57,830 nucleotides of DNA from an uncultured Gammaproteobacteria bacterium (GTDB lineage Bacteria > Patescibacteriota > Patescibacteriia > Magasanikbacterales > UBA10003), in the NCBI GenBank assembly GCA_964596405.1, contig CAZQSS010000002.1, forward strand, positions 1 to 57,830, read 5' to 3'. A program made the translations under genes and the position numbers. This document shows positions 1,335-29,421 of this stretch, in pieces; position 1 is the first letter of the stretch, and every line of letters begins with the position of its first letter. The notes beneath the pieces are model-generated. The model saw nothing but the letters and a program-made list of their open reading frames with translations, was not told the origin of the DNA and made no database searches.

Positions 1335-1997
1335 CTATTTTGGTAACTCCGTTAAAATCTTTAACTGCATCATTATTTTTTCTTTTAATTCTACCTTGTT
1401 AAACATAATTGTGCAAGTACCATGACCAAACGAACCTTTATGATTTATTCTGCAAGAAAGACTCTCTTTAATATATGGCTTTATAAATTGTTTGATTGAA
1501 ATATTTAAAAATTCTGCCCAGTATTTAATTTCTTTTTTAATATCCATATCTTTGTAAAGTTGCAGTGCGACTTTTAGGTCTTTGCTCTGTACTTTATAAA
1601 TTGATTTTAACCAATATATAAAAAATTTCAATACTTGCGGGTCAGTATTTGCCAAAGCCACTCTTGACCAATCTGCTTTACTGCCCTCACCCCAATATAA
1701 AGCTAACCCAGCAACAAACAGTTCTTTTTTCAAAAAGGGTAAAATGCGCTTTTTTTCAAAATTATATAAATTATTTAACCTCTCTTCTCTCTTTTTAAAC
1801 ATTGTCTGTCTAAATTTTTCAATTCTTATCTCACTGTTAGCTCTTAACTGATTAATCCTTTCTCTAGATAATGGATAATCTCTAAGCCAAGAACTTAACG
1901 TGCTTTTAGAGACGCCTGTTTCATTTTTTATTTGTGAATAACTTTTACCTTCTTTGCGCAACTCAAGAGCTCGCTCTCTTAATTTAATTTTGGACAC
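1335..1997 (-). CDS. HTH plus LAGLIDADG-like endonuclease-fold protein (hypothetical)
   Basis: 220-aa ORF. The N-terminus has a resolvase-type HTH (SYSQIKNETGVSKSTLSSWL) and there is a LAGLIDADG-like block FVAGLALYWGEGSK. The stop codon directly abuts the 5' end of the tRNA. Confidence 0.5.
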   Translation of the reverse strand: MSKIKLRERALELRKEGKSYSQIKNETGVSKSTLSSWLRDYPLSRERINQLRANSEIRIEKFRQTMFKKREERLNNLYNFEKKRILPFLKKELFVAGLALYWGEGSKADWSRVALANTDPQVLKFFIYWLKSIYKVQSKDLKVALQLYKDMDIKKEIKYWAEFLNISIKQFIKPYIKESLSCRINHKGSFGHGTCTIMFNKVELKEKIMMQLKILTELPK

Positions 1998-5506: not shown

Positions 5507-6541
5507 ATGAAAAAGATTATAGTTGAAGAACCGGACAATAAAAAAAGACTGGATAAATTTTTGACAGAACAACTGCCAAATTTTAGCCGTTCCCAAATTC
5601 AAAAATTGGTTAAACTCAAAAAAATCTTGGTTAACCAAAAGCCGGTCACCCCGCATCATTTTTTAAAAACCAATGACGAAATTAATCTGCTGGATCTCAA
5701 ATATACGGTTGCTCCCTACCAAAAATCCGAAGAACAAACCAAGGGTTCTAAAAAAACAAAAGCCGTCGCGCCAAAAATAATCTACGAAGACGATGATCTC
5801 GTGATTATCAACAAACCGGCCGGCCTTTTGGTTCATCCCCGTCTGGATATAGACAAAGAAACCGAACCGACTTTGGTTGATTGGCTTATTAAAAAGTATC
5901 CCAAAATAAAAAAAGTCGGCGACCAACCCGCCTCTCGGTCCGCCGCATCAGCCACCTGCCTGCCGGCAGGCAGGTTCGGTTCTGTGGCACCCGCAAACTC
6001 GGCGGGCAGGCCCAAACTCCGCCCCGGTATTGTGCATCGCCTGGATAAAGACGCCTCGGGCGTTATGGTGGTAGCCAAAAACCAGGCGGCTTTTGAAGCG
6101 CTGAAAAAACAATTTCATGATCGGCAAGTGATAAAAGAATATGTGGCTTTAACTTATGGACAAATTAAAGCTGATTGTGCTAATATAGAATTTCCTATCG
6201 GTCGGGCGCGCGAGGGTGGTAAAATGGCGGCCCGCGCCAAAGAAACCGAAGGCAAACCCTCCATCACCGCTATTGAAGTCACCAACCGTTTTCCTAATTG
6301 CACTTTGATTAAAGCCTTTCCTAAAACCGGCCGCACTCACCAAATCCGCGTTCACCTTTTTGCTTTGGGCAACCCCTTGGTGGGCGACCAACTTTACAAA
6401 AGTAAAAAATTTAAACCCATCCCCACCGGTCGGCTGATGCTGCACTCGCACAAACTGACAATTAAATTATTAGACAGGGAAATTAAAACATTCATCGCCC
6501 CCATTCCGCAAGAGTTTGATAAATATCGCGGATGGAATTAG
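5507..6541 (+). CDS. rluD: 23S rRNA pseudouridine synthase, RluA/RluD family
   Basis: S4-like N-terminus (RLDKFL..SRSQIQKLV), catalytic HRLDKDASGVMVVAKN and KTGRTHQIRVH. Start trimmed to the M at 5507 because the upstream codons belong to the MITE-like element. Confidence 0.85.
   Translation: MKKIIVEEPDNKKRLDKFLTEQLPNFSRSQIQKLVKLKKILVNQKPVTPHHFLKTNDEINLLDLKYTVAPYQKSEEQTKGSKKTKAVAPKIIYEDDDLVIINKPAGLLVHPRLDIDKETEPTLVDWLIKKYPKIKKVGDQPASRSAASATCLPAGRFGSVAPANSAGRPKLRPGIVHRLDKDASGVMVVAKNQAAFEALKKQFHDRQVIKEYVALTYGQIKADCANIEFPIGRAREGGKMAARAKETEGKPSITAIEVTNRFPNCTLIKAFPKTGRTHQIRVHLFALGNPLVGDQLYKSKKFKPIPTGRLMLHSHKLTIKLLDREIKTFIAPIPQEFDKYRGWN
5955..5974. repeat. Perfect 20-bp palindrome, in frame inside rluD (encodes CLPAGRFG)
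   Basis: CCTGCCTGCCGGCAGGCAGG. Confidence 0.9.
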
Positions 6542-6610
6542 GAATCAGGAATCAGGAATTATGCGTGGCGATTTTTATTCCCTAATTCATAATTCTTAAT
6601 TCTTAATTCC
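6534..6610. repeat. GGAATTAGGAAT-type palindromic intergenic repeat / probable terminator
   Basis: GGAATTAGGAATCAGGAATCAGGAATTAT ... ATTCCCTAATTCATAATTCTTAATTCTTAATTCC. A related in-frame copy lies in cca at 4103-4137. Confidence 0.75.
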
Positions 6611-6617
6611 CAACACT

Positions 6618-8143: not shown

Positions 8144-11005
8144 TCATCTAAAACATTTTTTTAAATATTGTCCGGTATAGCTTCGTTTAATCTTAGAGAC
8201 ATCGCGCGGCGTGCCTTTGGCCACAATCTCGCCGCCCATTTTACCGCCATCCGGCCCCAAATCAATCACCCAATCGGCGCATTTGATCACTTCCAAATTA
8301 TGTTCAATGATCAAAACCGTGTTACCCTTGTCCACTAAACGATTTAATACATTCAGGAGTTGTTTAATGTCTTCAAAATGTAAACCGGTGGTCGGTTCAT
8401 CCAAAATATAAAGAGTCCGGCCGGTGGCGCGGCGGGCTAATTCAGTGGCCAATTTAACGCGCTGAGCTTCACCGCCCGAAAGTTTGGTGGCCGGCTGGCC
8501 CAACTGCAAATAACCCAAACCTACATCGGCTAAAATTCTCAATTTGTCGGCAATAGCCGGCACGTTTCTGAAAAACTCCAAGGCTTCTTCCACGGTCATG
8601 GAAAGAATATCGGCGATGTTCTTACTCTGATAATGAATTTCCAACGCTTCGGCATTATACCGCCGGCCCTGACACTCATCGCATTTAACGTAAACATCGG
8701 CCAAAAACTGCATGGGGATACGCACATAACCTTCGCCGGCGCAGGCTTCGCAACGACCGCCGCCTTTGACATTAAAACTGAACTTGCCGGCTTCGTAACC
8801 GCGCAACTTGGCCTCGGTCACTTCGGTAAAAAGATCGCGGATCAGCGAAAAAACGCCGGTATAAGTCGCCGGATTGGAACGCGGGGTGCGGCCAATCGGC
8901 GCTTGATCAATGCTGATAACTTTGTCAACATTCTCCAGTCCCTTGATGGCTTTATGCTCGGCCGGCAAGGCTTTAGAACGGTAAAAATGCGCGGCCAACG
9001 CTTTGCCCAAAATCTCAACGATCAAAGTGGATTTGCCCGAACCGGAAACTCCGGTCACGCAAACCAATTTGCCCAAAGGAATCTCCACGTCCACGTTTTT
9101 CAAATTAAAAGCCGAGGCTTTTTGAATCTGAATTGTTTTATTATTTCCTTTATGCATTTTCTCCGGTATGGCTATTTCATCGCGTCCGGAAAGATACGCG
9201 CCGGTCAAAGAATTTTTATTTTTTAAAATCTCACTCAGTGTCCCCTGCGCCACAATCTCGCCGCCGTAGACGCCCGCGCCCGGGCCCACATCCATAATAT
9301 AATCGGCGTGGCGCATAATCGTTTCATCGTGTTCTACCACAATCACCGTATTGCCCAAATCGCGCAAGGCTGACAAAGTCTTAATCAATTTTTCCAAATC
9401 GCGGGGATGCAGGCCGATGGACGGTTCATCTAAAATATAAATAACGCCGGTCAGCCCGCTTGAAAGCTGGGTGGAGAGGCGAACGCGCTGGGATTCGCCG
9501 CCGGAGAGGGTAGTGATGGAACGATCCAGCGTCAGATAATCCAAACCGACCTTGGATAAATCATCCAACCTTTTTAAACTTTCTTTGAGAATCGGCGCGG
9601 CAATAGAAGCGTGGGAGGCTATATGAAAATGATCTTTGTGAGAGGATTTTTTGCCCGCTATGGCCTTTAACACCTCGCTGAAAAATTCGCGCGCTTCGGT
9701 GACCGAAAAAGCCGTCATCTCGCTGATATTTTTATCAAAAACCTTAACCGCCAAAGATTCCACTTTTAAACGGCGGCCGCTGCAAAGAGGACAAATCATT
9801 TCCCGCATATACTCCTCAATCTCTTTGCGAACATAATCGGATTGGGTTTCCCGATGTTTGTTTTCCAAATTGGCCATCACGCCCTCAAACTTTACCGACT
9901 TGCCTTCCACCGTATAACAAACATCATTAGTGCCATTGAGGATTAAATCAATTATTTTTTTGGGCAAATCTTTTATGGCCACATCCATGGGGAACTTGTT
10001 GGTATGAGCCGCGGCCTCAAGCAGTTTCAGATACCAATTTTGATTGCCGGTAATGCGCATCCAGGGCTGAATCGCGCCCTCAGCCAAGGTCAAACGCGGG
10101 TTGGGAATAACGAGTGCCGGGTCAACTTTCAGAACAATGCCCAAACCGGTGCATTTGGGGCAAGCGCCATAAGGACTGTTGAAAGAAAAATTATGCGGTT
10201 CCAAATCTTCAAACCGGCGGCCGCACTTCGGACAGCGCCAATGAGTAGAAAAAAGGGTTTCCTTCCTGCCCGCCGAAGAGGCGGGTTTCTTATTCCAGAC
10301 GGCAATCACCAAGCCATTGCCCAATTCCAAAGCATCATCCACCATTTTGGTGACGGCCCCGCTGTTTTTACCGCTCACTTCACCCAAAACAATATCCAAA
10401 TTACAAAGTACTTCTTCTTGATGACGCCTGGCCAAAAACTCATCCGCGGTACAAAACTTGCCTTCAAAACGCAATTCTTTAATTTCCCTGCTTTCCACGA
10501 TTTTTTCCAAATCACCCAAATTCTTTTTTTCAAAACGGCTGAGCGGCGCCAAAATTTTCACCCGCTCTCCGGCCATCACCAAACTTCTGACGGCCTCAAT
10601 AATTTGGCCGGCGGTAAATTTTCGCGTTTCCTCGCCGCAATCCGGACAAGTAATTTTACCGATACGCGCGTAAAGCAAACGGATATGATCGTAGATTTCG
10701 GTAATGGTGCCCACAGTGGAACGCGGATTCTGGCTGACCGAATGCTGATCAATGGCAATGGTCGGCGAAAGCCCCTGCACCTCGTCCACATCCGGCTTAT
10801 CCTGCATTTCCATAAACTGGCGGGCATAAGACGACAATGATTCGGCGTAACGGCGCTGGCCTTCGGCATAAATCGTGTCAAAAGCCAAAGAAGACTTGCC
10901 CGAACCGGACAAACCCGTAATCACCACCAGTTTATTTTTTGGAATAGATAAACTGATGTTTTTTAAATTGTTGACGCGAGCGCCGCGAATGATGATTTTG
11001 TCCAT
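8144..11005 (-). CDS. uvrA: Excinuclease ABC subunit A
   Basis: 953 aa with two ABC ATPase modules ([22 protein letters not shown]), zinc-finger cysteines and LSGGE signatures. Confidence 0.97.
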
Positions 11006-16113: not shown

Positions 16114-17475
16114 TTAATTATTAATTGTTTTCTTGTATTCCGGCGGGGAGATTTGCAAATCAATGCGGTTTAAATCGCGCGGAAAAAGAGTGGCTTGTTT
16201 AACGTTATCAACGCCCAAAAGCTTGGCGGTCAGTCGCTCCAAACCAATCGCCAATCCGCCTTCGGGCGGCATGCCATATTTAAAAGCCTGCAGATAAAAA
16301 GAAAAATTAGCCGGATCCAATCCCCATTTCCTGATATTTTCCACCAACTGATTATAATCGTTGAGACGTTGACCACCGGTGGTAATTTCCACCCCGCGGA
16401 AAAGCAAATCAAAACTCTTGGTATATTCCGGATCGGTTTCATCCGGATATGTATACATGGGACGCTTCTTGGTCGGATAATGCGTGATGAAAATAAAATC
16501 AGAATCGTACTTTCTTTTCGCGTACTCCCCCAGCCAAACCTCATCGGACGGATCCAAATCCGGTTCGGCCGTGTGGTCAATCCCGGCTTCTTTTTTAATT
16601 AGCTCTTGAGCCTCTTTTAATTTTAAAAAAGGAATTTCTTTGGGCACAACCGGCAACTCCGCCCCCAACGTCTGGAGTTCGTCTGAAAAATTTTTCTTCA
16701 GATAATCCATCATGTGGGCCAATAAATCGCGTTCCAGCCGCATTACATCGGTGTGATCTTTGATAAAACCGAATTCCAAATCCAATGAAGTGTATTCGTT
16801 GATGTGACGGGTGGTGGCGTGTTGCTCGGCGCGAAAAACATTACCGACCGTAAAGACGCGCTCAAAAACACCGACCATAATTTGTTTGTAAAATTGCGGG
16901 CTCTGGGCTAAAAACGCCGGATGGCCAAAATAATCCACTTTAAAAACATTGGCGCCACCTTCGGTTGAGGCGCCGACAATTTTGGGACATTGAAATTCCG
17001 TAAAATCCCGACTAATTAAAAAAGACCGAAAAGCTTGCACCAGCGCGGCCTGAATCTTAAAAATCGCGCGGTTTTTTTCGGTCCGCAAGGTCAAGGGCAA
17101 CATATCCAAATAAACATCCAAACCCATTTTCTCGTCCGCCGGATCCAGCGGTAGCGGCTCAGCCTTGGCCAAAATTTTAAAACCCTTGGCCAACACTTCA
17201 ATCGCCCCGGTAACCAAATTGGGATTAACACTCTTTTCGTTACGTTTTTGGACAATACCTGAAATCGACACCACAAATTCCGTTCGTACTTCTTTGGCGG
17301 CGTCATAGTCCGCCCCCATCTCCGACGGCGCGCAAATAACCTGTACCAAACCGCTTCGGTCGCGAATATCCAAAAAAATAATCTTACCTAAATTGCGCCG
17401 GGCGCGCACCCACCCTTCCAACAATACCTCTTGGCCGATTTTTTGAGTTGTTTCCAAGATTAAAGTTCTCTCCAT
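16114..17475 (-). CDS. aspS: Aspartyl-tRNA synthetase, archaeal/eukaryal type
   Basis: 453 aa. Class II motif 2 FRAEQHATTRHINEYTSLDLEF, motif 3 GGLAIGLERL, and an N-terminal OB fold. Confidence 0.9.
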   Translation of the reverse strand: MERTLILETTQKIGQEVLLEGWVRARRNLGKIIFLDIRDRSGLVQVICAPSEMGADYDAAKEVRTEFVVSISGIVQKRNEKSVNPNLVTGAIEVLAKGFKILAKAEPLPLDPADEKMGLDVYLDMLPLTLRTEKNRAIFKIQAALVQAFRSFLISRDFTEFQCPKIVGASTEGGANVFKVDYFGHPAFLAQSPQFYKQIMVGVFERVFTVGNVFRAEQHATTRHINEYTSLDLEFGFIKDHTDVMRLERDLLAHMMDYLKKNFSDELQTLGAELPVVPKEIPFLKLKEAQELIKKEAGIDHTAEPDLDPSDEVWLGEYAKRKYDSDFIFITHYPTKKRPMYTYPDETDPEYTKSFDLLFRGVEITTGGQRLNDYNQLVENIRKWGLDPANFSFYLQAFKYGMPPEGGLAIGLERLTAKLLGVDNVKQATLFPRDLNRIDLQISPPEYKKTINN

Positions 17476-17608: not shown

Positions 17609-18424
17609 TCAGAGCGACTTGGGCGGAATAAGGAGCTGTAAGAGAGCTTCACCGGCTTCCAGGATTTCCTGGGTGTCACCGGCTGGCGCGCAACCTTGCT
17701 TGATCTCCAGGTAACGAACCAACAAGCTGTGAACGGCCGTGACTTGCTGGAGCGTCAGGTAGGGGCTAGGTCCGAGCTGACTGTCAGAGAGGGCACTCGC
17801 CGCCATATCCACGTGATTCAGAAGGTACTGGTTGGTCATGTCCAGGTTGTGGTTCGGCTCACTGCAGACGCCGCCGACAGCTCGGCCGGCCCGCCACTCA
17901 ATCACCCGCTGCACCAGGTTGGTCAGGCCAAAATGAGTAACACTCATCATAGCGACATTGCCGGTGACCGAGGAGGTGCTGGCGGTGAAGAAAAGCGGGT
18001 CTTTGAGATTCAGAGACGGATTGGCCGACGGCAGCAGAGTGACAAGTGCGCTTTCCTCAACTGTCTGGGTGTTGCCGCTCACCGTGCCAATCTTGACCAT
18101 GATCTTGTGATACAAAATCCTGTCACCGACCGGCTTGACTTCCACGCTGCCGACGAAATTATAAAGCTCGCTCGGCATGGCCGGTTTGCCCTTTGCTTCG
18201 AAAGTCACCACCTGCTCGACGAATGCGTCCGGGTAATCCATGCTGTGCATGACGAGCGTCAGCTGCGGATTTTCCTCGGGCCTGGCTGCCTCCGGCGGAT
18301 CAACCTTCGGGGCCGGTTTTTCCACGACCGGCAGAACAGTTTGGGCCGACCGCACGGTCACACAACCGCTGCCGAAAACCGTTATCAAAAGAACCGTCGT
18401 CACCGCCAGCATCATCTTTTTCAT
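17609..18424 (-). CDS. Lipoprotein, paralog family member 1
   Basis: Signal peptide and lipobox (VFGSGC). The C-terminal block ..PYLTLQQVTAVHSLLVRYLEIKQGCAPAGDTQEILEAGEALLQLL aligns with 25301-26062 and 26059-26835. G+C-rich. Confidence 0.75.
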   Translation of the reverse strand: MKKMMLAVTTVLLITVFGSGCVTVRSAQTVLPVVEKPAPKVDPPEAARPEENPQLTLVMHSMDYPDAFVEQVVTFEAKGKPAMPSELYNFVGSVEVKPVGDRILYHKIMVKIGTVSGNTQTVEESALVTLLPSANPSLNLKDPLFFTASTSSVTGNVAMMSVTHFGLTNLVQRVIEWRAGRAVGGVCSEPNHNLDMTNQYLLNHVDMAASALSDSQLGPSPYLTLQQVTAVHSLLVRYLEIKQGCAPAGDTQEILEAGEALLQLLIPPKSL

Positions 18425-18476
18425 GGCTTCTTCTCCTTATTTTAGGCCTGTTAAAGATCTGCTCTCAAAACATTAT

Positions 18477-18505
18477 ATGATAGCACATTTTTAGCCTTTT
18501 GTCAA
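18477..18505 (-). promoter_or_regulatory. Sigma70-type promoter (TTGACA-17-TATCAT)
   Basis: The minus strand reads TTGACAaaaggctaaaaatgtgcTATCAT, near-identical in layout to 3563-3591. Confidence 0.65.
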
Positions 18506-18646
18506 GCATAGAAAGATTTGATATAATACTAGTAGTTTTGATAGCTTTTTGGCTAAACCCACACCGATTTCGTCTGTAGTAATTATTTTGATTCATAAGT
18601 CATTTATGAATTAAAGACGATGACCAAATTTTAGCATATTCACACT

Positions 18647-18832
18647 TAAACAGTCAAAAGTTCGCTTATCAGTAGTTACGCAAAATCGCGCGAGCGCTTT
18701 TGCGTAATGGGCGGCGGTTCCCTCCAGTTCCGCTCGTCGCTCGCGCGACTTCGCGTAACTGTCGGATATCTGTAATTTTGCCTTGCCGAGCGCGAGCTCG
18801 TCGGCAAAACTCCAGATATCCGCCGCCCATTA
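18647..18832 (+). repeat. Inter-cassette structured element, copy 1 (degenerate 5' module plus full core 18675-18832)
   Basis: The core is GTTACGCAAAATCGCGCGAGCGCTTTTGCGTAATGGGCGGCGGTTCCCTCCAGTTCCGCTCGTCGCTCGCGCGACTTCGCGTAACTGTCGGATATCTGTAAT-[variable hairpin]-CTCCAGATATCCGCCGCCCATTA. Confidence 0.9.
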
Positions 18833-18910
18833 TACGCCATACATTTTATCATTTTGATATTTTTTCACTCTGCTTTTTGTGAGTGATTGACGAATAAAAC
18901 AATATTTTTT
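18830..18910. repeat. Cassette 1 private inverted repeat, left arm
   Basis: TTATACGCCATACATTTTATCATTTTGATATTTTTTCACTCTGCTTTTT..TTGACGAATAAAACAATATTTTTT matches the reverse complement of 20153-20229. Confidence 0.85.
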
Positions 18911-18954
18911 AGTAATTTGATTAAGATAAAGGTACAAAGAATTATTCAACATTT

Positions 18955-20148
18955 ATGTCCTTGGAACGCGAGCCACAACAACATAATGAAAATGAGACTC
19001 GTGACAAATTCAATGCAAAATTGTCTGAATTGGCTGTCTATTGGTTAAAACTAAAAAATTTATGGGAACAAACGGCAACATCAAGAGACCCCCTTACTAA
19101 CAATGATCCCGACACAGAAATCGCGGGATTAGAAGAAAAAATTGCACCCATCCTCATCGAACTGCTCAATGCCAGCGGAGCGGAGCGTGAACTGCTGTAT
19201 GAAAAAGCTAGAAAAATTCGCGATGAAAATACTGACAAAAAAATTCAAGTTCGAGGTGTTATAGAGGTTAGCAATATCTGTCGTGCCAATTGTCTATATT
19301 GCCCAATGCGTCGAGATAATTTACCCACTACTGAAAAAATACGAATTACTCCAAAACAGATTTATAATCAGGTTAAGGCGACCAAAAAAGAAGGCATTAC
19401 AAATTTTTTCATGCAAAGTGGCGAGGATCCACAAATAATTCCCGTGGTATTAGAAGCATTATCGCTGATTAAAAATGACCCAGAAACGCGAGATATTAAA
19501 ATTGTCTTAAATTTAGGCGACCATTTGCCGAACACATATTCCAAACTGCACGAGGCTGGCGCTGATGGTTATTTAATAAAACACGAAACCTCAGATAAAG
19601 AATTACACCGTCTGATGCGACCTCATTCTACAGTTGAACAAAGAGTATCTCATTTACTACAAGCGCGCCAAGCTGGCATGCACATTGGTACTGGTGTAAT
19701 TGTCGGGTTGCCCGGTCAAACCGATCAATCATTAGCACAGGATATAATTTTTGCCGGTCGCATCGGATCTGAACAGATGGTTAGTTGCTCACCATTTATA
19801 CCGGGTGAAACCACTCCACTTGCAGGAGAACAAGCAGGAGATTTTTTCAAAACACTAAACATGATCGCAATATACCGCCTTCTCTTTCCAGCCGCCCGCA
19901 TTCCTGCAGTAAGTAATTTAGATTCTGCCAAACTCAGTACACGACCACCGGATTTAAAAATTAGCGGACAATCGGCAGGAATAAATGCCGGAGCAAATGG
20001 AATAACCATCAACGTGACACCACCAGCGATTCGCGATATCTATAGCATATACGATGTTAAAACAAGAGAAATTGTTGATTTTTCAAAAGCTAAAAGGATT
20101 GAAAAAGAAACAGGATTAACGCTTGATTTAGATGACAAAGATACATAG
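18955..20148 (+). CDS. Radical SAM enzyme, HydE/PylB/BioB-like subfamily (orphan)
   Basis: CxxxCxxC motif in VIEVSNICRANCLYCPMRRDN. Also MQSGEDP, EAGADGYLIKHETSD..LHRLMRP, GVIVGLPGQT, SPFIPGETTPLA and AIYRLLFPAARIPA, which are all HydE-like blocks. Has an unassigned N-terminal extension of about 95 aa. Confidence 0.85.
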   Translation: MSLEREPQQHNENETRDKFNAKLSELAVYWLKLKNLWEQTATSRDPLTNNDPDTEIAGLEEKIAPILIELLNASGAERELLYEKARKIRDENTDKKIQVRGVIEVSNICRANCLYCPMRRDNLPTTEKIRITPKQIYNQVKATKKEGITNFFMQSGEDPQIIPVVLEALSLIKNDPETRDIKIVLNLGDHLPNTYSKLHEAGADGYLIKHETSDKELHRLMRPHSTVEQRVSHLLQARQAGMHIGTGVIVGLPGQTDQSLAQDIIFAGRIGSEQMVSCSPFIPGETTPLAGEQAGDFFKTLNMIAIYRLLFPAARIPAVSNLDSAKLSTRPPDLKISGQSAGINAGANGITINVTPPAIRDIYSIYDVKTREIVDFSKAKRIEKETGLTLDLDDKDT

Positions 20149-20152
20149 AGAC

Positions 20153-20229
20153 AAAAAAATATTGTTTTATTGACGAGCGAAAAAAGCAGAGTGAAAAATA
20201 ATAATTAGGAAAAAATGTACAGCGTATAA
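20153..20229. repeat. Cassette 1 private inverted repeat, right arm
   Basis: Reverse complement of the left arm (..AAAAAAATATTGTTTTATTGAC..AAAAAAGCAGAGTGAAAAATA..GTACAGCGTATAA). Confidence 0.85.
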
Positions 20230-20448
20230 CAGCCGATATGCGGTTCCGCTCCGCTACACCCATATGCTGACGCACATCGCATATCGGCGAACGTTACGCA
20301 AAATCGCGCGAGCGCTTTTGCGTAATGGGCGGCGGTTCCCTCCAGTTCCGCTCGTCGCTCGCGCGACTTCGCGTAACTGTCGGATATCTGTAATCCCGCT
20401 CGCCCCCCGCGAGGGGCCGGCGGGACTCCAGATATCCGCCGCCCATTA
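20226..20448 (+). repeat. Inter-cassette structured element, copy 2 (5' hairpin module plus core 20293-20448)
   Basis: ATAACAG-CCGATATGCGG...CGCATATCGGCG-AAC followed by a core almost identical to copy 1. Confidence 0.9.
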
Positions 20449-20468
20449 TCTGAAATTGTAAATGCCCC
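20446..20468. repeat. Cassette 2 private inverted repeat, left arm (contains the ATG at 20462)
   Basis: TTATCTGAAATTGTAAATGCCCC, compared with the reverse complement of 21244-21266. Confidence 0.85.
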
Positions 20469-21238
20469 CTTTATTTATTGAAATTAAAAAATTATATTCG
20501 CTTCTTAATCCAAAAACTATGATACATAATCACGACATCAACAAACTTCCTGCCGATGGATATTTAGTGCTTCCTCTATCCATGAGCCGCTTGGCGAATG
20601 GCAAGGGTCAAAGCCCCGAAGAATGTTATGAGGTAATACAATATTTCGAGAATAAAGTCAGCCAAGTTGGAATAGATTTTTTGTTTATTTATACCAATGG
20701 ATTGTATTACAACAATGACGAATCTGCTTTGTCGGTCAGAAAAAAGACTAATCAAGCTATGATTGATCACAGAAACGCATTATTAAAATTAATGATAAAA
20801 AACAAAAAATATATTCCCCAAGCAGCTCATTTTATTCCGTGGGATTATATAATTTTGAATTCTCCGCAATTTTCTGATTATTATCAAAAATTAATTAAGC
20901 TGAAAGAAAATGACGAACAATTCAAAATTACTTTAGAGGAAGCACTAAATGGAAGAGAAAACACAGAAGCAAATATAAATTTTTTAATAGAGGAAATCGT
21001 TGTCACTTACTTGATTAGGCAAAAGTTAATTGAATTTCCCAAAACTCTCGTCAAAAATGATAAATTTCGCTTAGTGATTTATCCTGGAACATATTTGAAG
21101 GCTGATTGTTATCAATGGCAGAAAAAAGCATTGCCACAATTTGAAACATCAAGCGAAAATAGCAACCCATATTATGCGTCACAGTATGATTTTGCCAAAA
21201 AAATATTAAACAGTTTTGATGAAATTCAATTACAATAA
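20462..21238 (+). CDS. Hypothetical 258-aa protein, possibly cyclodipeptide-synthase-like (tentative)
   Basis: No strong motif. The order and spacing of LVLPLSMSRL (near residue 40), IDFLFIYTNG, WDYIILNSPQFSDYY, INFLIEEIVV (near residue 175) and LVIYPG (near residue 205) resemble the CDPS blocks GISxxNSxFS / YVxxExP / xYH. This is based on recall only. An alternative start is M20 at 20519. Confidence 0.3.
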   Translation: MPPLFIEIKKLYSLLNPKTMIHNHDINKLPADGYLVLPLSMSRLANGKGQSPEECYEVIQYFENKVSQVGIDFLFIYTNGLYYNNDESALSVRKKTNQAMIDHRNALLKLMIKNKKYIPQAAHFIPWDYIILNSPQFSDYYQKLIKLKENDEQFKITLEEALNGRENTEANINFLIEEIVVTYLIRQKLIEFPKTLVKNDKFRLVIYPGTYLKADCYQWQKKALPQFETSSENSNPYYASQYDFAKKILNSFDEIQLQ

Positions 21239-21243
21239 GGAGT

Positions 21244-21266
21244 GGGGCATTTACAACATCAGATAA
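21244..21266. repeat. Cassette 2 private inverted repeat, right arm
   Basis: GGGGCATTTACAACATCAGATAA, 5 nt after the stop codon. Confidence 0.85.
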
Positions 21267-21510
21267 CACGGCATATCTGCAAGGGCTAAAGCCACATTTC
21301 GCCACGAAAATTATATAAATAAAGGAGGTGGCGAAACGTCAGATATGCCGAAACGTTACGCAAAATCGCGCGAGCGTTTTCGCGTAATGGGCGGCGGTTC
21401 CCTCCAGTTCCGCTCGTCGCTCGCGCGACTTCGCGTAACTGTCGGATATCTGTAATCCCGCTCGCCCCCCGCGAGGGGCCGGCGGGACTCCAGATATCCG
21501 CCGCCCATTA
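21263..21510 (+). repeat. Inter-cassette structured element, copy 3 (5' hairpin module plus core 21355-21510)
   Basis: ATAACAC-GGCATATCTG...CAGATATGCC-GAAAC followed by the core. Both stems of the 5' module differ from copies 2 and 4 by compensatory changes. Confidence 0.9.
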
Positions 21511-21575
21511 GCGAAAATAAATTACTTTTTCCCGTCCGATTTTGACGATTTTAATTGTAGGGGGCCGAATTTTTG
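21508..21575. repeat. Cassette 3 private inverted repeat, left arm
   Basis: TTAGCGAAAATAAATTACTTTTTCCCGTCCGATTTT..GGGGGCCGAATTTTT matches the reverse complement of 24046-24110. Confidence 0.85.
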
Positions 21576-21633
21576 TAATTGTTGACGAGGGGAACAAACG
21601 GAATAGCCACCTTTTGTAGGGTGGCTATCATTT

Positions 21634-21662
21634 TTGACTTAAAACTGTAAAAAAGGTAAAAT
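21634..21662 (+). promoter_or_regulatory. Candidate promoter of the R-M operon (TTGACT-17-TAAAAT)
   Basis: TTGACTtaaaactgtaaaaaaggTAAAAT, preceded by the hairpin ATAGCCACC-ttttgtag-GGTGGCTAT at 21603-21628. Confidence 0.5.
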
Positions 21663-21688
21663 TAAACCATAAAAACCATTTATCACTT

Positions 21689-22480
21689 ATGAAATATCCT
21701 AAAGATTTTACCAACAAATTCATTACTGGTGATTGTATTAAAATCATGAAACAAATACCGGACGGCTCGGTTGATTTAGTTGTTACCTCGCCTCCCTACA
21801 ATCTCAAAAACTCCACAGGCAACGGCATGAAAGACGGCCGTGGCGGTAAATGGTCTGGAGCGGCGCTGGTAAATGGCTATGATAACTACGACGACAACAT
21901 GCCGCATGACGAATACGCTAAGTGGCAACGCAATTGTTTAACCGAAATGTTTAGGGTTGTTAATGATAATGGTGCTATTTTTTATAATCACAAATGGCGC
22001 GTCCAAGATGGATTACTCCAAGATCGACAAGATATTGTTAGTGGTTTTCCGGTAAGACAAATTATTATTTGGCGACGCAAAGGCGGAATCAATTTTAACG
22101 CTGGCTATTTTTTGCCAACCTATGAAGTAATTTATCTTATCGCAAAAAATAATTTCAAATTAGTATCAAAAGCCAACGCCCACGGCGATGTGTGGGAATT
22201 TACCCAAGATATGAACAACCCTCACCCCGCCCCATTTCCGGTCGCGCTGATTGAACGAATCGTTTCCTCCACCAACGCCCAAACTATTTTGGACCCATTT
22301 ATGGGTTCAGGTACTACGGCCGTTGTAGCTAAAGCATTGGGACGAAAATTTATTGGCATTGATATTTCACCTAAATATTGCGAAATGGCTGAGGAACGAC
22401 TCGGACGAAATGTAAAACACAACGAAATGGAACTTCTAAAACCTCAAATGAGTATTTTTAAACTACAACGCGCCGTATGA
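21689..22480 (+). CDS. DNA methyltransferase, beta-class N4-cytosine/N6-adenine (SPPY motif)
   Basis: Motif IV VVTSPPYN lies N-terminal and motif I DPFMGSGTTAVVA C-terminal. Overlaps the endonuclease gene through ATGA. Confidence 0.9.
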   Translation: MKYPKDFTNKFITGDCIKIMKQIPDGSVDLVVTSPPYNLKNSTGNGMKDGRGGKWSGAALVNGYDNYDDNMPHDEYAKWQRNCLTEMFRVVNDNGAIFYNHKWRVQDGLLQDRQDIVSGFPVRQIIIWRRKGGINFNAGYFLPTYEVIYLIAKNNFKLVSKANAHGDVWEFTQDMNNPHPAPFPVALIERIVSSTNAQTILDPFMGSGTTAVVAKALGRKFIGIDISPKYCEMAEERLGRNVKHNEMELLKPQMSIFKLQRAV

Positions 22481-23265
22481 AAATTTACACCAAACCACAG
22501 TTAATCACAAAACTAAAAGAAATCTCAAAACAAGGTTGGATACCAAACGGCCGACATGGCAATGCCGGCGGAATTGGTAACACTTTGGAAGACTTGTTGG
22601 GAATCGAAGAAAATAATTTGCCAATTCCAAACGCCGCCGAATGGGAACTTAAAACACAACGGATCGCTACAAGCTCGCTCACTACTCTTTTTCATACTGA
22701 GCCATCACCACGCGCGGTAAAATTTGTACCACAAATATTACTACCACTTTATGGTTGGAAACACGACGGAGCAGGAAAACAATACCCTAAGAACGAGATG
22801 AGTTTCCGACAAACAATTCATGGGCACAGTCCAAGCGACCGTGGCTTTATTGTAAAAATTGACCGCGCAGAACAAAAGGTTTTAATTTCTTTTGACGCCT
22901 CAAAAGTGGCCAAAAAACATAAAATTTGGTTAAAATCCGTCAAAAAGAAAGTCGGCAACTTAAACGAACTCAATCCCCAACCTTATTGGGGTTTTGATGA
23001 TCTGGGACACAAAGCCGGCACCAAACTTCTGAACTGTTTTTATGTCCAAGCCAAAGTGAAAAAAGAAAAAGGCAAAGAATTTTACCATTACACAAAAGTA
23101 ATGATGTTACAAAAATTCAGTTTTGAAAAATTTTTAAACGCTCTTGATGAGGGCAAAATTCTAGTGGACTTTGACGCTCGCACCGGCCATAACCACGGCA
23201 CAAAATTTCGGATGAGACAAGATTGTTTGCCGATGTTGTATGAAAAAACCACCTCAATAATATAA
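22477..23265 (+). CDS. Type II restriction endonuclease, MvaI/BcnI (MutH-like) family
   Basis: N-terminus MKIYTKPQLITKLKEISKQGW and the blocks GNTLEDLLGIEENNLPIPNAAEWELKT and HYTKVMML resemble BcnI/MvaI as I recall them. Translationally coupled to the methyltransferase gene. Confidence 0.75.
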   Translation: MKIYTKPQLITKLKEISKQGWIPNGRHGNAGGIGNTLEDLLGIEENNLPIPNAAEWELKTQRIATSSLTTLFHTEPSPRAVKFVPQILLPLYGWKHDGAGKQYPKNEMSFRQTIHGHSPSDRGFIVKIDRAEQKVLISFDASKVAKKHKIWLKSVKKKVGNLNELNPQPYWGFDDLGHKAGTKLLNCFYVQAKVKKEKGKEFYHYTKVMMLQKFSFEKFLNALDEGKILVDFDARTGHNHGTKFRMRQDCLPMLYEKTTSII

Positions 23266-23274
23266 AACAATAAA

Positions 23275-23985
23275 TTGCTAACCAAATTTATGAAAAAAAT
23301 CATAATTTATTTAAAATTTTTTTGGGTGGCAATACTTTTGTTTATATTATCTATAATTTGCTGGTACTACTTACCAGAAAATTATAACAATTTCAAAGGC
23401 AATTTAATCGCTTCTATTCTCGGCGTTGGAATCGCAATTTTTACTGCTGAGGGTTTTAAAAATATTAACGACCATAGACGAATCAAAAAGAACTTCGGAT
23501 TTTTAAGGCTTATTGTAATCCCTTATCTAAAAAATCAAACACAAAATTTTATAGATACAGCGAATGGTTTCCAAGATATATGTAATAAAGTACAAGCCGT
23601 CAATTTTATCGCAGTCATATCCAGCATAAATGAAATGAGTAATACATTTGATAAAAGCTGGCTTCAATTAATCTTCTCCCAAGATTTTATTGATGCTATA
23701 AAAACAGATGAACACTTCAATAAAATTTCCCACACTATATTGGAATTATTGTTATTCATAAGTTCAACAACAACATTATCCGCAAACGCAAAAACACTCA
23801 TGTTAAACAATGTCGTCCAACTCGACGAAGAAGCGACCAAAATGTTTATAACAAAAGCACGCGAGTTTAGATCGGCCTTAACCAAAAGTGCTCAAGATTT
23901 ACAGAAATACGTTAATTTACTAGACCAAGAAATGGAATTATTTTTTCGAGAGAATAATGTTATTTACCAAGAATTTGAAAGATGA
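23275..23985 (+). CDS. Membrane-anchored (2 TM) helical protein, unknown function, third gene of the R-M cassette
   Basis: Two N-terminal hydrophobic helices followed by an alpha-helical domain of about 170 aa. An alternative start is MKKII at 23290. Confidence 0.55.
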   Translation: MLTKFMKKIIIYLKFFWVAILLFILSIICWYYLPENYNNFKGNLIASILGVGIAIFTAEGFKNINDHRRIKKNFGFLRLIVIPYLKNQTQNFIDTANGFQDICNKVQAVNFIAVISSINEMSNTFDKSWLQLIFSQDFIDAIKTDEHFNKISHTILELLLFISSTTTLSANAKTLMLNNVVQLDEEATKMFITKAREFRSALTKSAQDLQKYVNLLDQEMELFFRENNVIYQEFER

Positions 23986-24045
23986 TTATACATATTTGGT
24001 GAGGGCGCAATTCACCCCTAACCCCTCTTGCGCCCGCCAACGACG

Positions 24046-24110
24046 AAAAAATTCGGCCCCCCATTATATTTAATAAAATCGAACGGAAAAAAGTAATTTA
24101 CATTCGCTAA
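24046..24110. repeat. Cassette 3 private inverted repeat, right arm
   Basis: AAAAAATTCGGCCCCCC..AAAATCGAACGGAAAAAAGTAATTTACATTCGCTAA. Confidence 0.85.
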
Positions 24111-24405
24111 CAGCCGATATGCGGTTCAAGAAAAAGAGTGTAAAATATTTTCAGCGGATACTCTTTTTCTCTCACCCATATTTCGCACAAATTTAATTTT
24201 AATGGAATGTGCGAAACATCGCATATCGGCGTACATTACGCAAAATCGCGCGAGCGCTTTTGCGTAATGGGCGGCGGTTCCCTCCAGTTCCGCTTGTCGC
24301 TCGCGCGACTTCGCGTAACTGTCGGATATGCGGCGCTTCGCTACATCCCGCCCTCGCCTCGAGCCTTGCGGCTCGGACGGGAAGTCGCATATCCGCCGCC
24401 CACTA
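24108..24405 (+). repeat. Inter-cassette structured element, copy 4 (expanded 5' hairpin module plus core 24235-24405)
   Basis: TAACAG-CCGATATGCGG...CGCATATCGGCG-TAC followed by the core. The 3' stem is GGATATGCG/CGCATATCC instead of GGATATCTG/CAGATATCC, which is a compensatory change. Confidence 0.9.
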
Positions 24406-24428
24406 GGCGAAATTTATTTAATTTTTTT
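24404..24428. repeat. Cassette 4 private inverted repeat, left arm
   Basis: TAGGCGAAATTTATTTAATTTTTTT, immediately 5' of the ATG at 24429. Confidence 0.75.
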
Positions 24429-24734
24429 ATGCATAAAGATGTTAGGCCTATTATTAAAGCAACAATATTTATAATTGTTGTGCTGTTAATAGCATGTCCT
24501 TTCTGGTTAAGAATTTTAATTAAAACTGCAGACAAAATGAGCATGAGTATGGGTGACGATAGTATGTTAGAGACTAAGGTCGCTGCCTGGATAATATTAA
24601 TCGGGGTCTTGTTAGTTTGGTTAATTCCTTGGTTGATCCAAATTATCTTATCTGTATACATTTTTAATAAAAATTCTCAACAATCTGATGCAATACTCAA
24701 AACTCTAAAAGATATAAAGAAAAAAATTAAATAA
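24429..24734 (+). CDS. Small (101-aa) two-TM membrane protein
   Basis: Start trimmed to MHKDVRP because the upstream part of the tracked ORF lies in the repeat. Two hydrophobic helices and a Lys-rich tail. Confidence 0.55.
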   Translation: MHKDVRPIIKATIFIIVVLLIACPFWLRILIKTADKMSMSMGDDSMLETKVAAWIILIGVLLVWLIPWLIQIILSVYIFNKNSQQSDAILKTLKDIKKKIK

Positions 24735-24745
24735 ACATCGCATAA
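24720..24745. repeat. Cassette 4 private inverted repeat, right arm (overlaps the last codons and the stop)
   Basis: AAAAAAATTAAATAAACATCGCATAA. Confidence 0.75.
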
Positions 24746-24765
24746 CAGGGGGATATCCGATTCCG
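24742..24765 (+). repeat. Terminal partial copy of the inter-cassette element (first approx 24 nt of the 5' module only)
   Basis: ATAACAGGGGGATATCCGATTCCG, compared with ATAACAGCCGATATGCGGTTCCG in copy 2. Confidence 0.7.
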
Positions 24766-24834
24766 ATACATTGTACGAAATTTTAAAAAACAAATTTTTT
24801 ATTTTTATATAGAGCCCTTTTGAAATTTTTTTTT

Positions 24835-24872
24835 GGAAATAAAGAAGACCCGCCTTTGTAAGCACGGGTCTT
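24835..24872 (-). terminator. Rho-independent terminator of the lipoprotein operon
   Basis: Hairpin AGACCCG..CGGGTCT followed by a T-rich run on the minus strand. Confidence 0.7.
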
Positions 24873-24892
24873 TATGTTTGTGAGCGGATTGT

Positions 24893-25258
24893 TCACCGTA
24901 CCGTCATGGCTCGGTGGGGTGCTCTTCTTCTCGCGAGCTCTTTGCGCTCGTCTTTCGTGAGGGTGTTGGCCTGTTCCTTGGCGTATAATCCCTCAATTCT
25001 GTCCCAATCTATCACTGCATTGTTGCGAGCCCATAACTCCCGATGTTCCTTGTCCTCTTCGCTGGAAATGCTACCAGCGATGGACTTAGAGGTTAGTTCA
25101 TGAAGCCTCTTCATCCATACTTCTCTTTCGCTGATTTTTTTCCACGATCGTATTTGCTTGAGTTTCTCAAGCTCTTTGTTGGTGAGTGTGCCAGCTTGCT
25201 CCTTGCGAAGCAAGTCGTGGAATATTCGCATCACATTCTCTATTCTTAAGGAACTCAT
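24893..25258 (-). CDS. Hypothetical 121-aa protein with internal repeat (KEQAGTLTNKELEKL / KEQANTLTKDERKEL)
   Basis: Good RBS (AGGAGGTGGCG-ATG). Last gene of the operon that starts at 26835. Confidence 0.6.
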   Translation of the reverse strand: MSSLRIENVMRIFHDLLRKEQAGTLTNKELEKLKQIRSWKKISEREVWMKRLHELTSKSIAGSISSEEDKEHRELWARNNAVIDWDRIEGLYAKEQANTLTKDERKELARRRAPHRAMTVR

Positions 25259-28134: not shown

Positions 28135-29421
28135 TCAAGGTTTCAGTCTGTTAATCATGCGGGGAAATGGTATGCTCTCTCTTACGTGTGAGAGGCCGCA
28201 GATCCAGGTGACGAGTCGTTCCAGGCCATAGCCAAAACCCGAGTGCGGCACCGAGCCGTAACGGCGTAAATCCAAATACCATTCAAACGGTTCGCGTTTC
28301 AAACCGAATTCTTTTAAACGCCGGAGCAGGGTTTCGTAATCGTCTTCGCGCTGACTGCCACCGATCACTTCGCCATAACCCTCAGGCGCGAGCAAATCCG
28401 CGCAGAGCGCGCGACTTTCATCTTGCGGATCACGTTTCATATAAAAGGCCTTAATTTTGGCCGGATATTTTTCAACAAATACGGGCTTGTCGTATTCTTT
28501 GGTCAGAGTGGTTTCATCATCCCCGCCTAAATCGTCGTCGGCTTTAATATCCGAACCCAATTTGCGCAATTTTTTAACCGCCTCTTCATGGCTTAACCGA
28601 TAAAACGGTGCTTTGACGTTTTCTAAGGGCTTAACATCGCGTTCTAAAATTTTTAATTCCTCCTGATTGATTTCCAAAACTTTATTGACAATAAAACTGA
28701 CGAGATTTTCCTGGATTTCCAAATTGCCAACGTGCTCCACAAAAGCCATCTCCGCGTCCATCATCCAAAACTCGGTTAAGTGCCGGCGAGTTTTGCTTTT
28801 TTCCGCGCGGAAAACCGGCCCAAAATCAAACACGCGGCCGTGCGAAAAAATCGCCGATTCAATATAGAGCTGGCCGGATTGGGTGAGATAAGCGTTGCCC
28901 TCGTCAAAATATTTCATGCCGAAAAGTTCGGTGGTATTTTCGCAGGAAGTCGGAGTCAAAATCGGCGCGTCAATTTTAATAAAATCGTTCTGATTAAAAA
29001 ATTCATAAGTGGCGTTGATAATGGTATTGCGGACACGCTGAATCGCCCACTGCCGCGGCGCACGCAGCCAAAGGTGGCGAATATCCAAAAGAAAATCCGG
29101 CCCGTGCTCTTTTTTGCCAATCGGGAACTCTTCGGCCAGTTGCACAATTTTCAAATCCCCAACCTGAATTTCAAAAACGCCCGGATGCTTGGGGTGGGCG
29201 CTCACCCGGCCATGGACAATCACCGACGTCTCTACGGTGATTTTTTGCGCCGTTTCCCAAACCGCCTCGGGCACGGATTTTTTATCCACGATCGCCTGGA
29301 CAAAACCCGAACCGTCGCGAATTTGCAAAAACGCGATACTGCCCGAAGAGCGCAGATTGTAAACCCAGCCTTTTAGCTCCACCTCTTTTCCAACTGATAA
29401 TGATAAGTTCTTAATAAACAT
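28135..29421 (-). CDS. asnS: Asparaginyl-tRNA synthetase
   Basis: 428 aa with FRAEKSKTRRHLTEFWMMDAEMAF and GGSQRE...YLDLRRYGSVPHSGFGYGLERLV..IPFPR. Confidence 0.9.
   Translation of the reverse strand: MFIKNLSLSVGKEVELKGWVYNLRSSGSIAFLQIRDGSGFVQAIVDKKSVPEAVWETAQKITVETSVIVHGRVSAHPKHPGVFEIQVGDLKIVQLAEEFPIGKKEHGPDFLLDIRHLWLRAPRQWAIQRVRNTIINATYEFFNQNDFIKIDAPILTPTSCENTTELFGMKYFDEGNAYLTQSGQLYIESAIFSHGRVFDFGPVFRAEKSKTRRHLTEFWMMDAEMAFVEHVGNLEIQENLVSFIVNKVLEINQEELKILERDVKPLENVKAPFYRLSHEEAVKKLRKLGSDIKADDDLGGDDETTLTKEYDKPVFVEKYPAKIKAFYMKRDPQDESRALCADLLAPEGYGEVIGGSQREDDYETLLRRLKEFGLKREPFEWYLDLRRYGSVPHSGFGYGLERLVTWICGLSHVRESIPFPRMINRLKP

Follow-up and report, generated by a model that had tools for sequence, protein, structure and literature searches.

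The window analysed here is a stretch of 57,830 nucleotides (57.8 kb) from an "ultra-small" groundwater bacterium of the candidate phyla radiation (CPR, Patescibacteria), and it carries an integron-like run of mobile gene cassettes in which four copies of a GC-rich element lie between AT-rich gene-bearing segments. A preliminary description had treated the GC-rich element as one conserved unit. It resolved into two parts, namely the attC-like hairpin of the upstream cassette (D1) and a separable non-coding mini-cassette (E core). On the plus strand, the leader ACAGTCAAAAGTTCGCTTATCAGTAG (18650..18675) ends at the first crossover-type junction, TAG^TTACGC (the caret marks a junction throughout), and may be read as either a degenerate attC-like or an attI-like site. 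It is followed by E core copy 1 (18676..18829; TTACGC…GCGTAAC-TGT-hairpin-CCGCCCA) and by cassette 1 (18830..20229), whose terminal arms lie at 18830-18913 and 20151-20229 and whose D1 (20230..20293) has the form C-AG-CCGATATGCGG…CGCATATCGG-CGAACG. After E core copy 2 (20294..20445), cassette 2 (20446..21266) has its arms at 20446-20485 and 21222-21266, and its D1 (21267..21355; C-AC-GGCATATCTGC…GTCAGATATGCC-GAAACG) shows compensatory stem changes relative to the other D1 hairpins. E core copy 3 (21356..21507) precedes cassette 3 (21508..24110; arms 21508-21574 and 24047-24110), which is followed by the longest D1, of about 125 nt (24111..24235). E core copy 4 (24236..24402) has a variant terminal hairpin with compensatory changes, and cassette 4 (24403..24745; arms 24404-24428 and 24720-24744) closes the series. 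The array end (24746..24800) consists of a short D1-like palindrome, CAGGGGGATATCCGATTCCGATACA, and then TTGTACGAAATTTT…, which, set beside the left arms TTGTACGAAAT of the related loci L053 and L054, has the look of a left arm from a fifth, truncated cassette.

All cargo open reading frames (ORFs) are on the plus strand, and the cargo is of accessory or defence type, restriction-modification (R-M) systems included. Cassette 1 encodes a HydE/PylB/BioB-like radical SAM protein (18955-20148), and cassette 2 a protein of unassigned family (probably 20519-21238). Cassette 3 has three cargo ORFs, for an N4/N6 DNA methyltransferase (21689-22480), an MvaI/BcnI-family restriction enzyme (22477-23265) and a protein of unassigned family (23275-23985), while cassette 4 encodes a predicted membrane protein of 101 amino acids (24429-24734). 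Upstream of the array, a promoter-like site on the plus strand (18499..18527; TTGTCA-17-TATAAT with an upstream TG, 11/12 consensus matches) points into it and is, by this consensus match, a candidate common cassette promoter. Within cassette 3, a terminator-like hairpin and then a promoter-like TTGACT-17-TAAAAT precede the methyltransferase gene (21603-21662), so transcription of the R-M unit may not depend on the array promoter.

The two ends of each cassette were compared by local alignment of its first 110 nt with the reverse complement of its last 110 nt, using non-cognate end pairs and 1000 shuffles as controls. Cognate arms scored 69, 43, 66 and 35 in cassettes 1 to 4, respectively, whereas non-cognate pairs scored 13-21 and the shuffles gave mean scores of 15-19 with maxima of 26-33. 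The preliminary description had claimed that each cassette starts with the reverse complement of its own end, and this was borne out, coordinates included, with cognate scores of 35-69 against at most 21. Chance complementarity of AT-rich sequence, which it had named as a possible objection, does not account for the scores, although cassette 4, with the shortest arm, barely exceeded the shuffle maximum (35 vs 33). The pairing spans 20-110 nt over the arrays compared. Among the four window cassettes the arms differ in sequence, while their first 11 nt follow the consensus TTAKNYGM(A/C)AT at the left end and, reverse-complemented, TTAKNYGMTGT at the right end. The junctions read GCCCA^TTA on the left (GCCCA^CTA for cassette 4) and TAA^CAG or TAA^CAC on the right, so that the reported pattern GCCCA(T/C)-TA…TA-ACA(G/C) was found at all four cassettes.

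Two statements had been made about how the arms lie against the reading frames. In cassette 4 the arm does abut the ATG at 24429 and cover the stop codon (24732-24734). In cassette 2 the start codon, which had been placed inside the arm, probably lies outside it, at 20519, since homologues of the cargo protein have 238-240 amino acids and cover 90-93% of the 258-amino-acid ORF. On the top strand, TTGACG occurs in each arm of cassette 1 (18873-18900 and 20165-20185), at the very place where pairing between the arms is interrupted; a strand-specific motif, perhaps a -35-like box, might have been retained there.

Across the arrays the cassettes follow one grammar: TTA…TAAC, two unpaired nucleotides, a hairpin, four to six unpaired nucleotides, and G (or A)^TTA of the next unit. 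D1 is the variable hairpin directly 3' of each cassette, and its stem changes are compensatory between copies. Hairpin sizes range from about 20 to 125 nt across arrays and from about 64 to 125 nt for the D1 copies of the window, whereas some junctions, in L061 and at 24746-24770 of the window, have short spacers of 13-25 nt without a real hairpin. The D1 of cassette 1 also follows cassette 1 in L026. In the usual definition (Mazel 2006; Cury et al. 2016, PMC4889954), an intI gene adjoins the array of an integron and every cassette closes with an attC site, an imperfect R''-L''…L'-R' palindrome of about 57-141 nt that carries AAC/GTT triplets and leaves a central spacer unpaired. In these terms …TAAC corresponds to R'', the hairpin stem to the L box, the unpaired bases to the central spacer and G^TTA… to R'. 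The attC-like sites of the window measure about 70-135 nt and have the geometry of attC, while their box sequences deviate from RYYYAAC/GTTRRRY and the crossover base after the E core is A, not G.

The ends of 20 cassettes from at least seven source assemblies were then aligned. As in integrons, the start of each cassette is complementary to the R'' of its own attC-like site, and here the complementarity goes further: the first 8 nt pair, a 2-nt mismatch follows at positions 9-10, and another 10-100 nt pair beyond it. Positions 4-8 comprise 10 distinct words among the 20 cassettes, with an identity of 4.7/5 between the two ends of one cassette vs 2.7/5 between cassettes, and such co-variation argues for pairing and not for a fixed protein-binding sequence. 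Positions 9-10 read A/C-A at the left end, against T-G in the reverse complement of the right end (T in 18/20, G in 19/20). On the top strand this gives two mismatches, and on the bottom strand T·T or G·T plus T·G, amounting to 19 G·T wobble pairs on the bottom strand vs none on the top. Right arm, D1 and the left arm of the same cassette, joined in the order of an excised circle and folded as DNA, formed one long hairpin, predicted to be 3.4-5 kcal/mol more stable on the bottom strand than on the top.

The same data bear on a function at the RNA level, for which RNase III-type processing had been suggested. The array would then be read as one transcript, with paired 5' and 3' flanks as processing or stabilising stems, like the RNase III-cut stems of rRNA, and with the GC-rich element as a structured RNA. 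A strong promoter-like site upstream, uniformly oriented genes, arms that bracket ORFs and the very stable fold of the E core (z about -8) all fit such a role. We nevertheless consider it very improbable, because the E core folds equally strongly on both strands and has no Rfam match, the asymmetry at positions 9-10 allows pairing on the antisense strand alone, the arms end precisely at those junctions where a unit is found in some genomes and missing from others, and the arrays are anchored to a recombinase gene. Arm mismatches compatible with G·U pairing on the sense strand were also not in excess (15 top-strand and 7 bottom-strand, 59 other), and positive evidence for RNase III-type processing was not found.

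The E core is a conserved non-coding unit of 152-167 nt with the structure TTACGCAAAA…GCGTAAC-TGT-CGGATATCTG…CAGATATCCG-CCGCCCA, and it follows the grammar of the gene cassettes: it starts with TTA and ends in its own attC-like hairpin, …CCCA^TTA. Its 5' end, TTACGCAAAATCGCGCGAGCG (TTACGC…), is complementary to an internal segment ending in GCGTAAC, after which come the hairpin and ^TTA. Its helices co-vary across lineages, with double changes in 16 of the 36 predicted pairs. Two mutually exclusive folds are possible, one with its own ends paired and one with two internal hairpins, and TTCCCTCCAG is invariant and unpaired. Between two cassettes the E core is missing in L044 and in L026, it is absent at the array starts of L055 and L063, and the L057 array (>9 kb) lacks it wholly. 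In L044 it is truncated twice, at 1600-1671 and 5690-5789, by different internal deletions in one genome. One of these copies has its closing helix capped by a CTAT loop and the other is without the terminal hairpin, and a normal cassette start follows both. Its absence or truncation in several arrays shows that the E core is a non-coding cassette in its own right, one that can be separated from the sites and does not belong to all of them. It may act as an insulator or as a favoured place for insertion, or it may be a selfish cassette.

In a scan against Rfam 15 the only match at gathering score was a tRNA at 1263-1334, and nothing within 18400-24900 had an E value below 0.3. A ribozyme, an intron or another known structured RNA was ruled out by this result and by the equal folding of both strands. 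With an E-core 21-mer, viral contigs gave no match, and genome contigs gave only two chance matches, in cytochrome oxidase genes of Alphaproteobacteria (WGGSLQF). A metagenome scan with a shifted E-core 19-mer returned 35 loci, of which about 12 contain real relatives.

The relatives are short metagenomic contigs. The preliminary description had proposed looking in relatives for new cassettes with their own end complementarity and the same junctions, and these were present in L053, L044, L054, L056, L057/L058, L061, L063, L026 and L035. For example, L053 has three E cores and new cassettes, each with its own end complementarity, such as TTAGCTGAAATAATTAAATT… paired with …AATTTAATTACATCAGCGAA. 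L044 comes from the Parcubacteria genome GW2011_GWA2_42_28. In the L057 array, cassettes and D1-type hairpins simply alternate, and one of the cassettes, of 156 nt, consists of arms only. The first unit of this array after the attI-like site (8998-9831, minus strand) encodes a transposase with an rve (IS3-type) integrase domain and has a normal left arm, AACTAG^TTATAGGAAATTG.

Across genomes, units are present or absent at exact junctions. Integron cassettes are excised and inserted by site-specific recombination of the folded bottom strand; for the present arrays this presence or absence and the strand asymmetry lend such recombination indirect support. The arms had been described as private to their cassettes, which holds within the window array. 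Between genomes it does not: besides the semi-conserved first 11 nt, arm frames recur with unrelated cargo. In L053 and L044 the left arm of window cassette 1 stands in front of a kinase gene, and the TTATACGCCATAATAAAAGCCG arm family frames three different cargos. Between members of an arm family, the changes fall in both arms together. Homologues of the cassette 2 protein that lie outside arrays (L064 and L065) had end scores of 15-17, which is background, and no arms. The arms therefore belong to the cassette frame and not to the gene, and the possibility that arms travel with a cargo gene was ruled out.

The homologue in L065 (6001-6726; Ga0265297_10000027, labelled Candidatus Pacearchaeota) is 74% identical and sits in a chromosome of archaeal appearance with S27e, eIF2-alpha and RadA as neighbours, which suggests a gene common to both domains. 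In L064 (1-12741; Candidatus Kerfeldbacteria, JACPGJ010000008.1) the homologue belongs to a row of some 18 small accessory genes that share one orientation, are separated by only 3-50 nt and have no hairpin sites; this row is perhaps a different kind of accessory island, or an array that lost its sites.

These comparisons also bear on the view that the cassettes are non-autonomous, TA-targeting transposons with terminal inverted repeats (TIRs), such as miniature inverted-repeat transposable elements or IS630/Tc1-like elements, inserted into a tandem repeat scaffold. The ends are indeed TIR-like and flanked by TA…TA, some arm families are common to unrelated cargo, and an IS3/HTH-like ORF fragment lies at 1335-1997. 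Such elements should have shared TIRs, a cognate DDE transposase and dispersed TA insertions, but every copy of the cassette ends seen lies inside an array, neighbouring cassettes differ in their TIRs, and there is no transposase in or near the window cassettes, nor a DDE transposase near the window array. The variable hairpin D1 follows cassette 1 in both contexts seen, the cargo orientation is uniform, and the start of the arrays is always a conserved site next to the gene for a tyrosine recombinase. We give this explanation hardly any credence, and the earlier argument against a single TIR-binding transposase was judged reasonable. IS200/IS605-type or HUH elements, bridge RNA systems and retrons were considered from the anatomy and were dropped, as no such enzymes are nearby and related arrays are associated with a tyrosine recombinase.

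Wherever the contig of a relative extends upstream of the array, the array starts next to a divergent gene for a tyrosine recombinase of 270-285 amino acids. Eight loci are informative in this respect (L044, L032, L054, L055, L056, L057/L058, L061 and L063); in L044 the array starts about 120 nt upstream of the gene, which encodes 285 amino acids. The L059 and L060 contigs break less than 100 nt upstream of the recombinase gene, as expected at repeats. The recombinases are 62-86% identical to that of L044 and 62-100% identical among each other. The first junction is conserved as an attI-like ..CACTAG^TT in most loci (L044, L032, L054, L055, L061 and L063), with ..AAACTAG^TT in L057 and ..ACGAG^TT in L056. 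The sites in the former six loci and in L057 are comparable to the leader of the window, and a sequence like the leader also opens the L047 array and follows the final cassette in L053.

The closest PDB match of the recombinase is the integron integrase VchIntIA (2A3V, E = 5e-45). Against the protein profiles it scored 234 with NF040815 (XerA/integron integrase), above the cut-off of 220, and 210 bits with TIGR02249 (integron integrase), below the cut-off of 265. The family has 5677 matches below 1e-40, mostly in Patescibacteria. The alignment of recombinase P0001 with 2A3V falls into two blocks in which query residues 192-208 stand opposite 182-241, so that about 43 residues are absent.

A Xer-like recombinase raises the prospect that the cassettes are modules of a duplex Xer/dif type, moved by classical duplex exchange in which folding has no role and the long complementarity is a by-product of module origin. 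The absence of the IntI insertion, the ftsK gene adjoining the recombinase gene in L059, and the spacers of only 13-25 nt at some junctions (L061; window 24746-24770) agree with it. So does the common consensus in the first 11 nt of both ends (left TTAKNYGMAAT, right …ACAKCRNMTAA), which resembles the E. coli dif arms, TTATGTTAAAT and GGTGCGCATAA; this likeness is a lead and not a test. A Xer or pdif site is a duplex of 28-30 bp with two 11-bp arms and a centre of 6-8 bp, whereas adjacent arms here are 13-135 nt apart. A sequence-specific site would also need no complementarity between the ends at positions 4-8 or over the next 10-100 nt, yet the ends are complementary and co-vary, and the D1 stems show compensatory changes between copies. 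Duplex exchange is therefore improbable in our view, though it is the strongest of the rivals.

In our view the region is likely to be an integron-like array of a CPR/Patescibacteria bacterium, with cassette ends that are the folded-DNA recombination sites of a Xer-type integron. The best reading of the private inverted repeats is that they are R'/R'' boxes lengthened from about 7 nt to 20-110 nt. The preliminary description had already drawn the comparison with integrons and had proposed, as one of two options, that the arms function as folded nucleic acid in recombination substrates; both ideas agree with the junction geometry, the co-variation within cassettes and the related arrays beside recombinase genes.

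The scheme that we infer comprises single-strand folding, a crossover point, a choice of strand, a role for the long arms and present-day activity. In an excised circle, as single-stranded or extruded DNA, right arm, D1 and left arm would become contiguous and zip into one long hairpin; for cassette 2 the circle junction would read …CAGATAAC-D1-…AACG^TTATCTGAAATTG…. The first 11 bp of the stem (TTAKNYGM-xx-T) would serve as a dif-arm-like binding site, and the unpaired C-AG/…AACG as the central region, while the D1 stem would provide the other arm for binding. Strand exchange at ^TTA, with either an attI-like site (..CACTAG^TT) or the site of another cassette as partner, would be the work of a Xer-type tyrosine recombinase, whose gene is absent from the window and, in related genomes, stands divergently where the array starts. 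Through the 2-nt asymmetry at stem positions 9-10 the two strands would fold differently, which could set the choice of strand and the orientation. Once a cassette is integrated, the long stem might stabilise folding or extrusion of AT-rich ends that lie 0.3-3.3 kb apart. The R' that adjoins R'' in the integrated state is that of the next unit and matches over only 3-4 nt, so that only the cassette's own left arm would form a full R box.

Several points weigh against this interpretation. No tyrosine recombinase is encoded in the window (tblastn; Pfam analysis of flanking ORFs), and the array here is therefore at best a cluster of sites without an integrase. In the relatives, the residues absent from the recombinase correspond to the IntI-specific insertion (the I2 helix region, around patch III). 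This insertion is treated as a defining feature of integron integrases (PMC9668308, PMC7790495, PMC4792948) and regarded as necessary for recombination of single-stranded attC (PMC7790495, PMC9668308), an ability attributed to the gain of the I2 helix (PMC4792948, PMC7790495). The family belongs to the 'Cand' Xer-related subgroup, assumed to be the housekeeping Xer of candidate phyla (PMC8138268), and the neighbouring ftsK in L059 points the same way. Neither an excised circle nor an empty site was seen among the assembled contigs compared. Cassette order differs between contigs from Hainich groundwater, and each such junction runs through an identical 152-nt E core; because identical E cores allow an assembly chimera or a second array, these differences were downgraded as proof of mobility and may be nothing else. 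The model does not explain why, in some lineages, E cores and gene cassettes alternate. Classical integrons, moreover, work without long arms, so the role given here to the extra length is inferred.

Measured against known systems, the arrays resemble integrons, including the integrase-less clusters of attC sites (CALINs), in many respects. The recombinase gene of the relatives is divergent from the array, the first junction is attI-like and conserved, and a promoter-like site precedes a series of accessory cassettes that mostly lack promoters and all point the same way. An imperfect hairpin between …AAC and G^TT… closes each cassette, and the opening bases of the cassette can pair with the beginning of that hairpin site. 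Built-in strand asymmetry, non-coding cassettes and R-M or defence cargo are also common to both. The arrays differ from integrons in that the ends pair over 20-110 nt, with a fixed 2-nt mismatch at 9-10, vs about 7 nt; in that the recombinase is without the IntI-specific insertion; in the R boxes, TTAKNYG/…TAAC vs GTTRRRY/RYYYAAC; in the conserved non-coding cassette of 152-167 nt that alternates with gene cassettes in some lineages; and in having a CPR bacterium as host.

A second comparison is with the phage CTX-phi, a precedent for a Xer enzyme at work on a folded hairpin, since XerCD reportedly integrates a single-stranded hairpin of this phage at dif (Val et al. 2005). Both systems have a Xer-type enzyme without the IntI insertion and distant inverted segments that pair into a duplex of arm, central region and arm with an unpaired centre. 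Here, however, gene cassettes are stacked beside a recombinase gene (in the relatives), and no phage genome lies at a chromosome terminus. The arms are also cassette-specific, and the GC skew across the window indicates no terminus at the array. The pdif modules of Acinetobacter are resistance modules flanked by Xer sites, conserved 28-bp duplexes with a 6-bp centre (PMC7399989). They likewise are discrete gene modules bounded by Xer-arm-like sequences in inverted orientation, but have no hairpin, no long module-specific complementarity and no recombinase-anchored array.

In the literature searched, no description was found of integron-like arrays in CPR/Patescibacteria or of long pairing between cassette ends, and the array appears to be an integron-type cassette platform of a variant without prior description. 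A more tentative proposal, towards which we lean less than away, is that CPR/Patescibacteria harbour a widespread undescribed integron lineage run by a housekeeping-looking, I2-less Xer-type recombinase, in which dif-arm-like ends zip into site-making stems. It would be a living intermediate between Xer/dif and the integron, with empty hairpin cassettes and the E core as gene-capture frames.

The array may show how integrons arose, and it touches two open questions, namely how IntI evolved from Xer-like enzymes and how cassettes gain recombination sites. If the interpretation is true, a natural I2-less Xer-like cassette system, with dif-arm-like ends, long stems and arm-only empty cassettes, would make both origin questions testable. 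The E core and the empty hairpin cassettes, as capture frames, would bear on the unsolved origin of integron cassettes. A function would also be reassigned to the 'Cand' Xer subgroup, so far assumed to be housekeeping (PMC8138268), and integron surveys keyed on the IntI insertion would miss such systems. The reduced-genome CPR bacteria would possess a gene-shuffling platform with R-M systems among its cargo.

In the window, the array has a lipoprotein gene on one side and a gene of unknown function on the other, with housekeeping genes around, and the proteins flanking the array were matched only in Hainich groundwater assemblies. The tRNA detected at 1263-1334 is a tRNA-Ile with anticodon TAT that adjoins a 220-amino-acid ORF (1335-1997, minus strand), of which only the N-terminal region is HTH_23/IS3-transposase-like. 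Both lie in a kilobase of low GC content (37%), and the patch may be the remnant of a mobile element. An inverted repeat of about 30 nt (4107-4140 and 6584-6613), rich in AATTAGGAAT/AATTCTTAAT, scored 50 in the cassette-end search and is without a hairpin or a TAAC^CAG context. Its first arm is inside a CCA-adding/poly(A) polymerase-like ORF (3618-5366) and its second arm is in the gap before the cytidylate kinase gene. Two paralogous class II (D/K/N-type) aminoacyl-tRNA synthetase genes flank the array, 11 kb apart, at 16114-17475 and 28135-29421 (minus strand).

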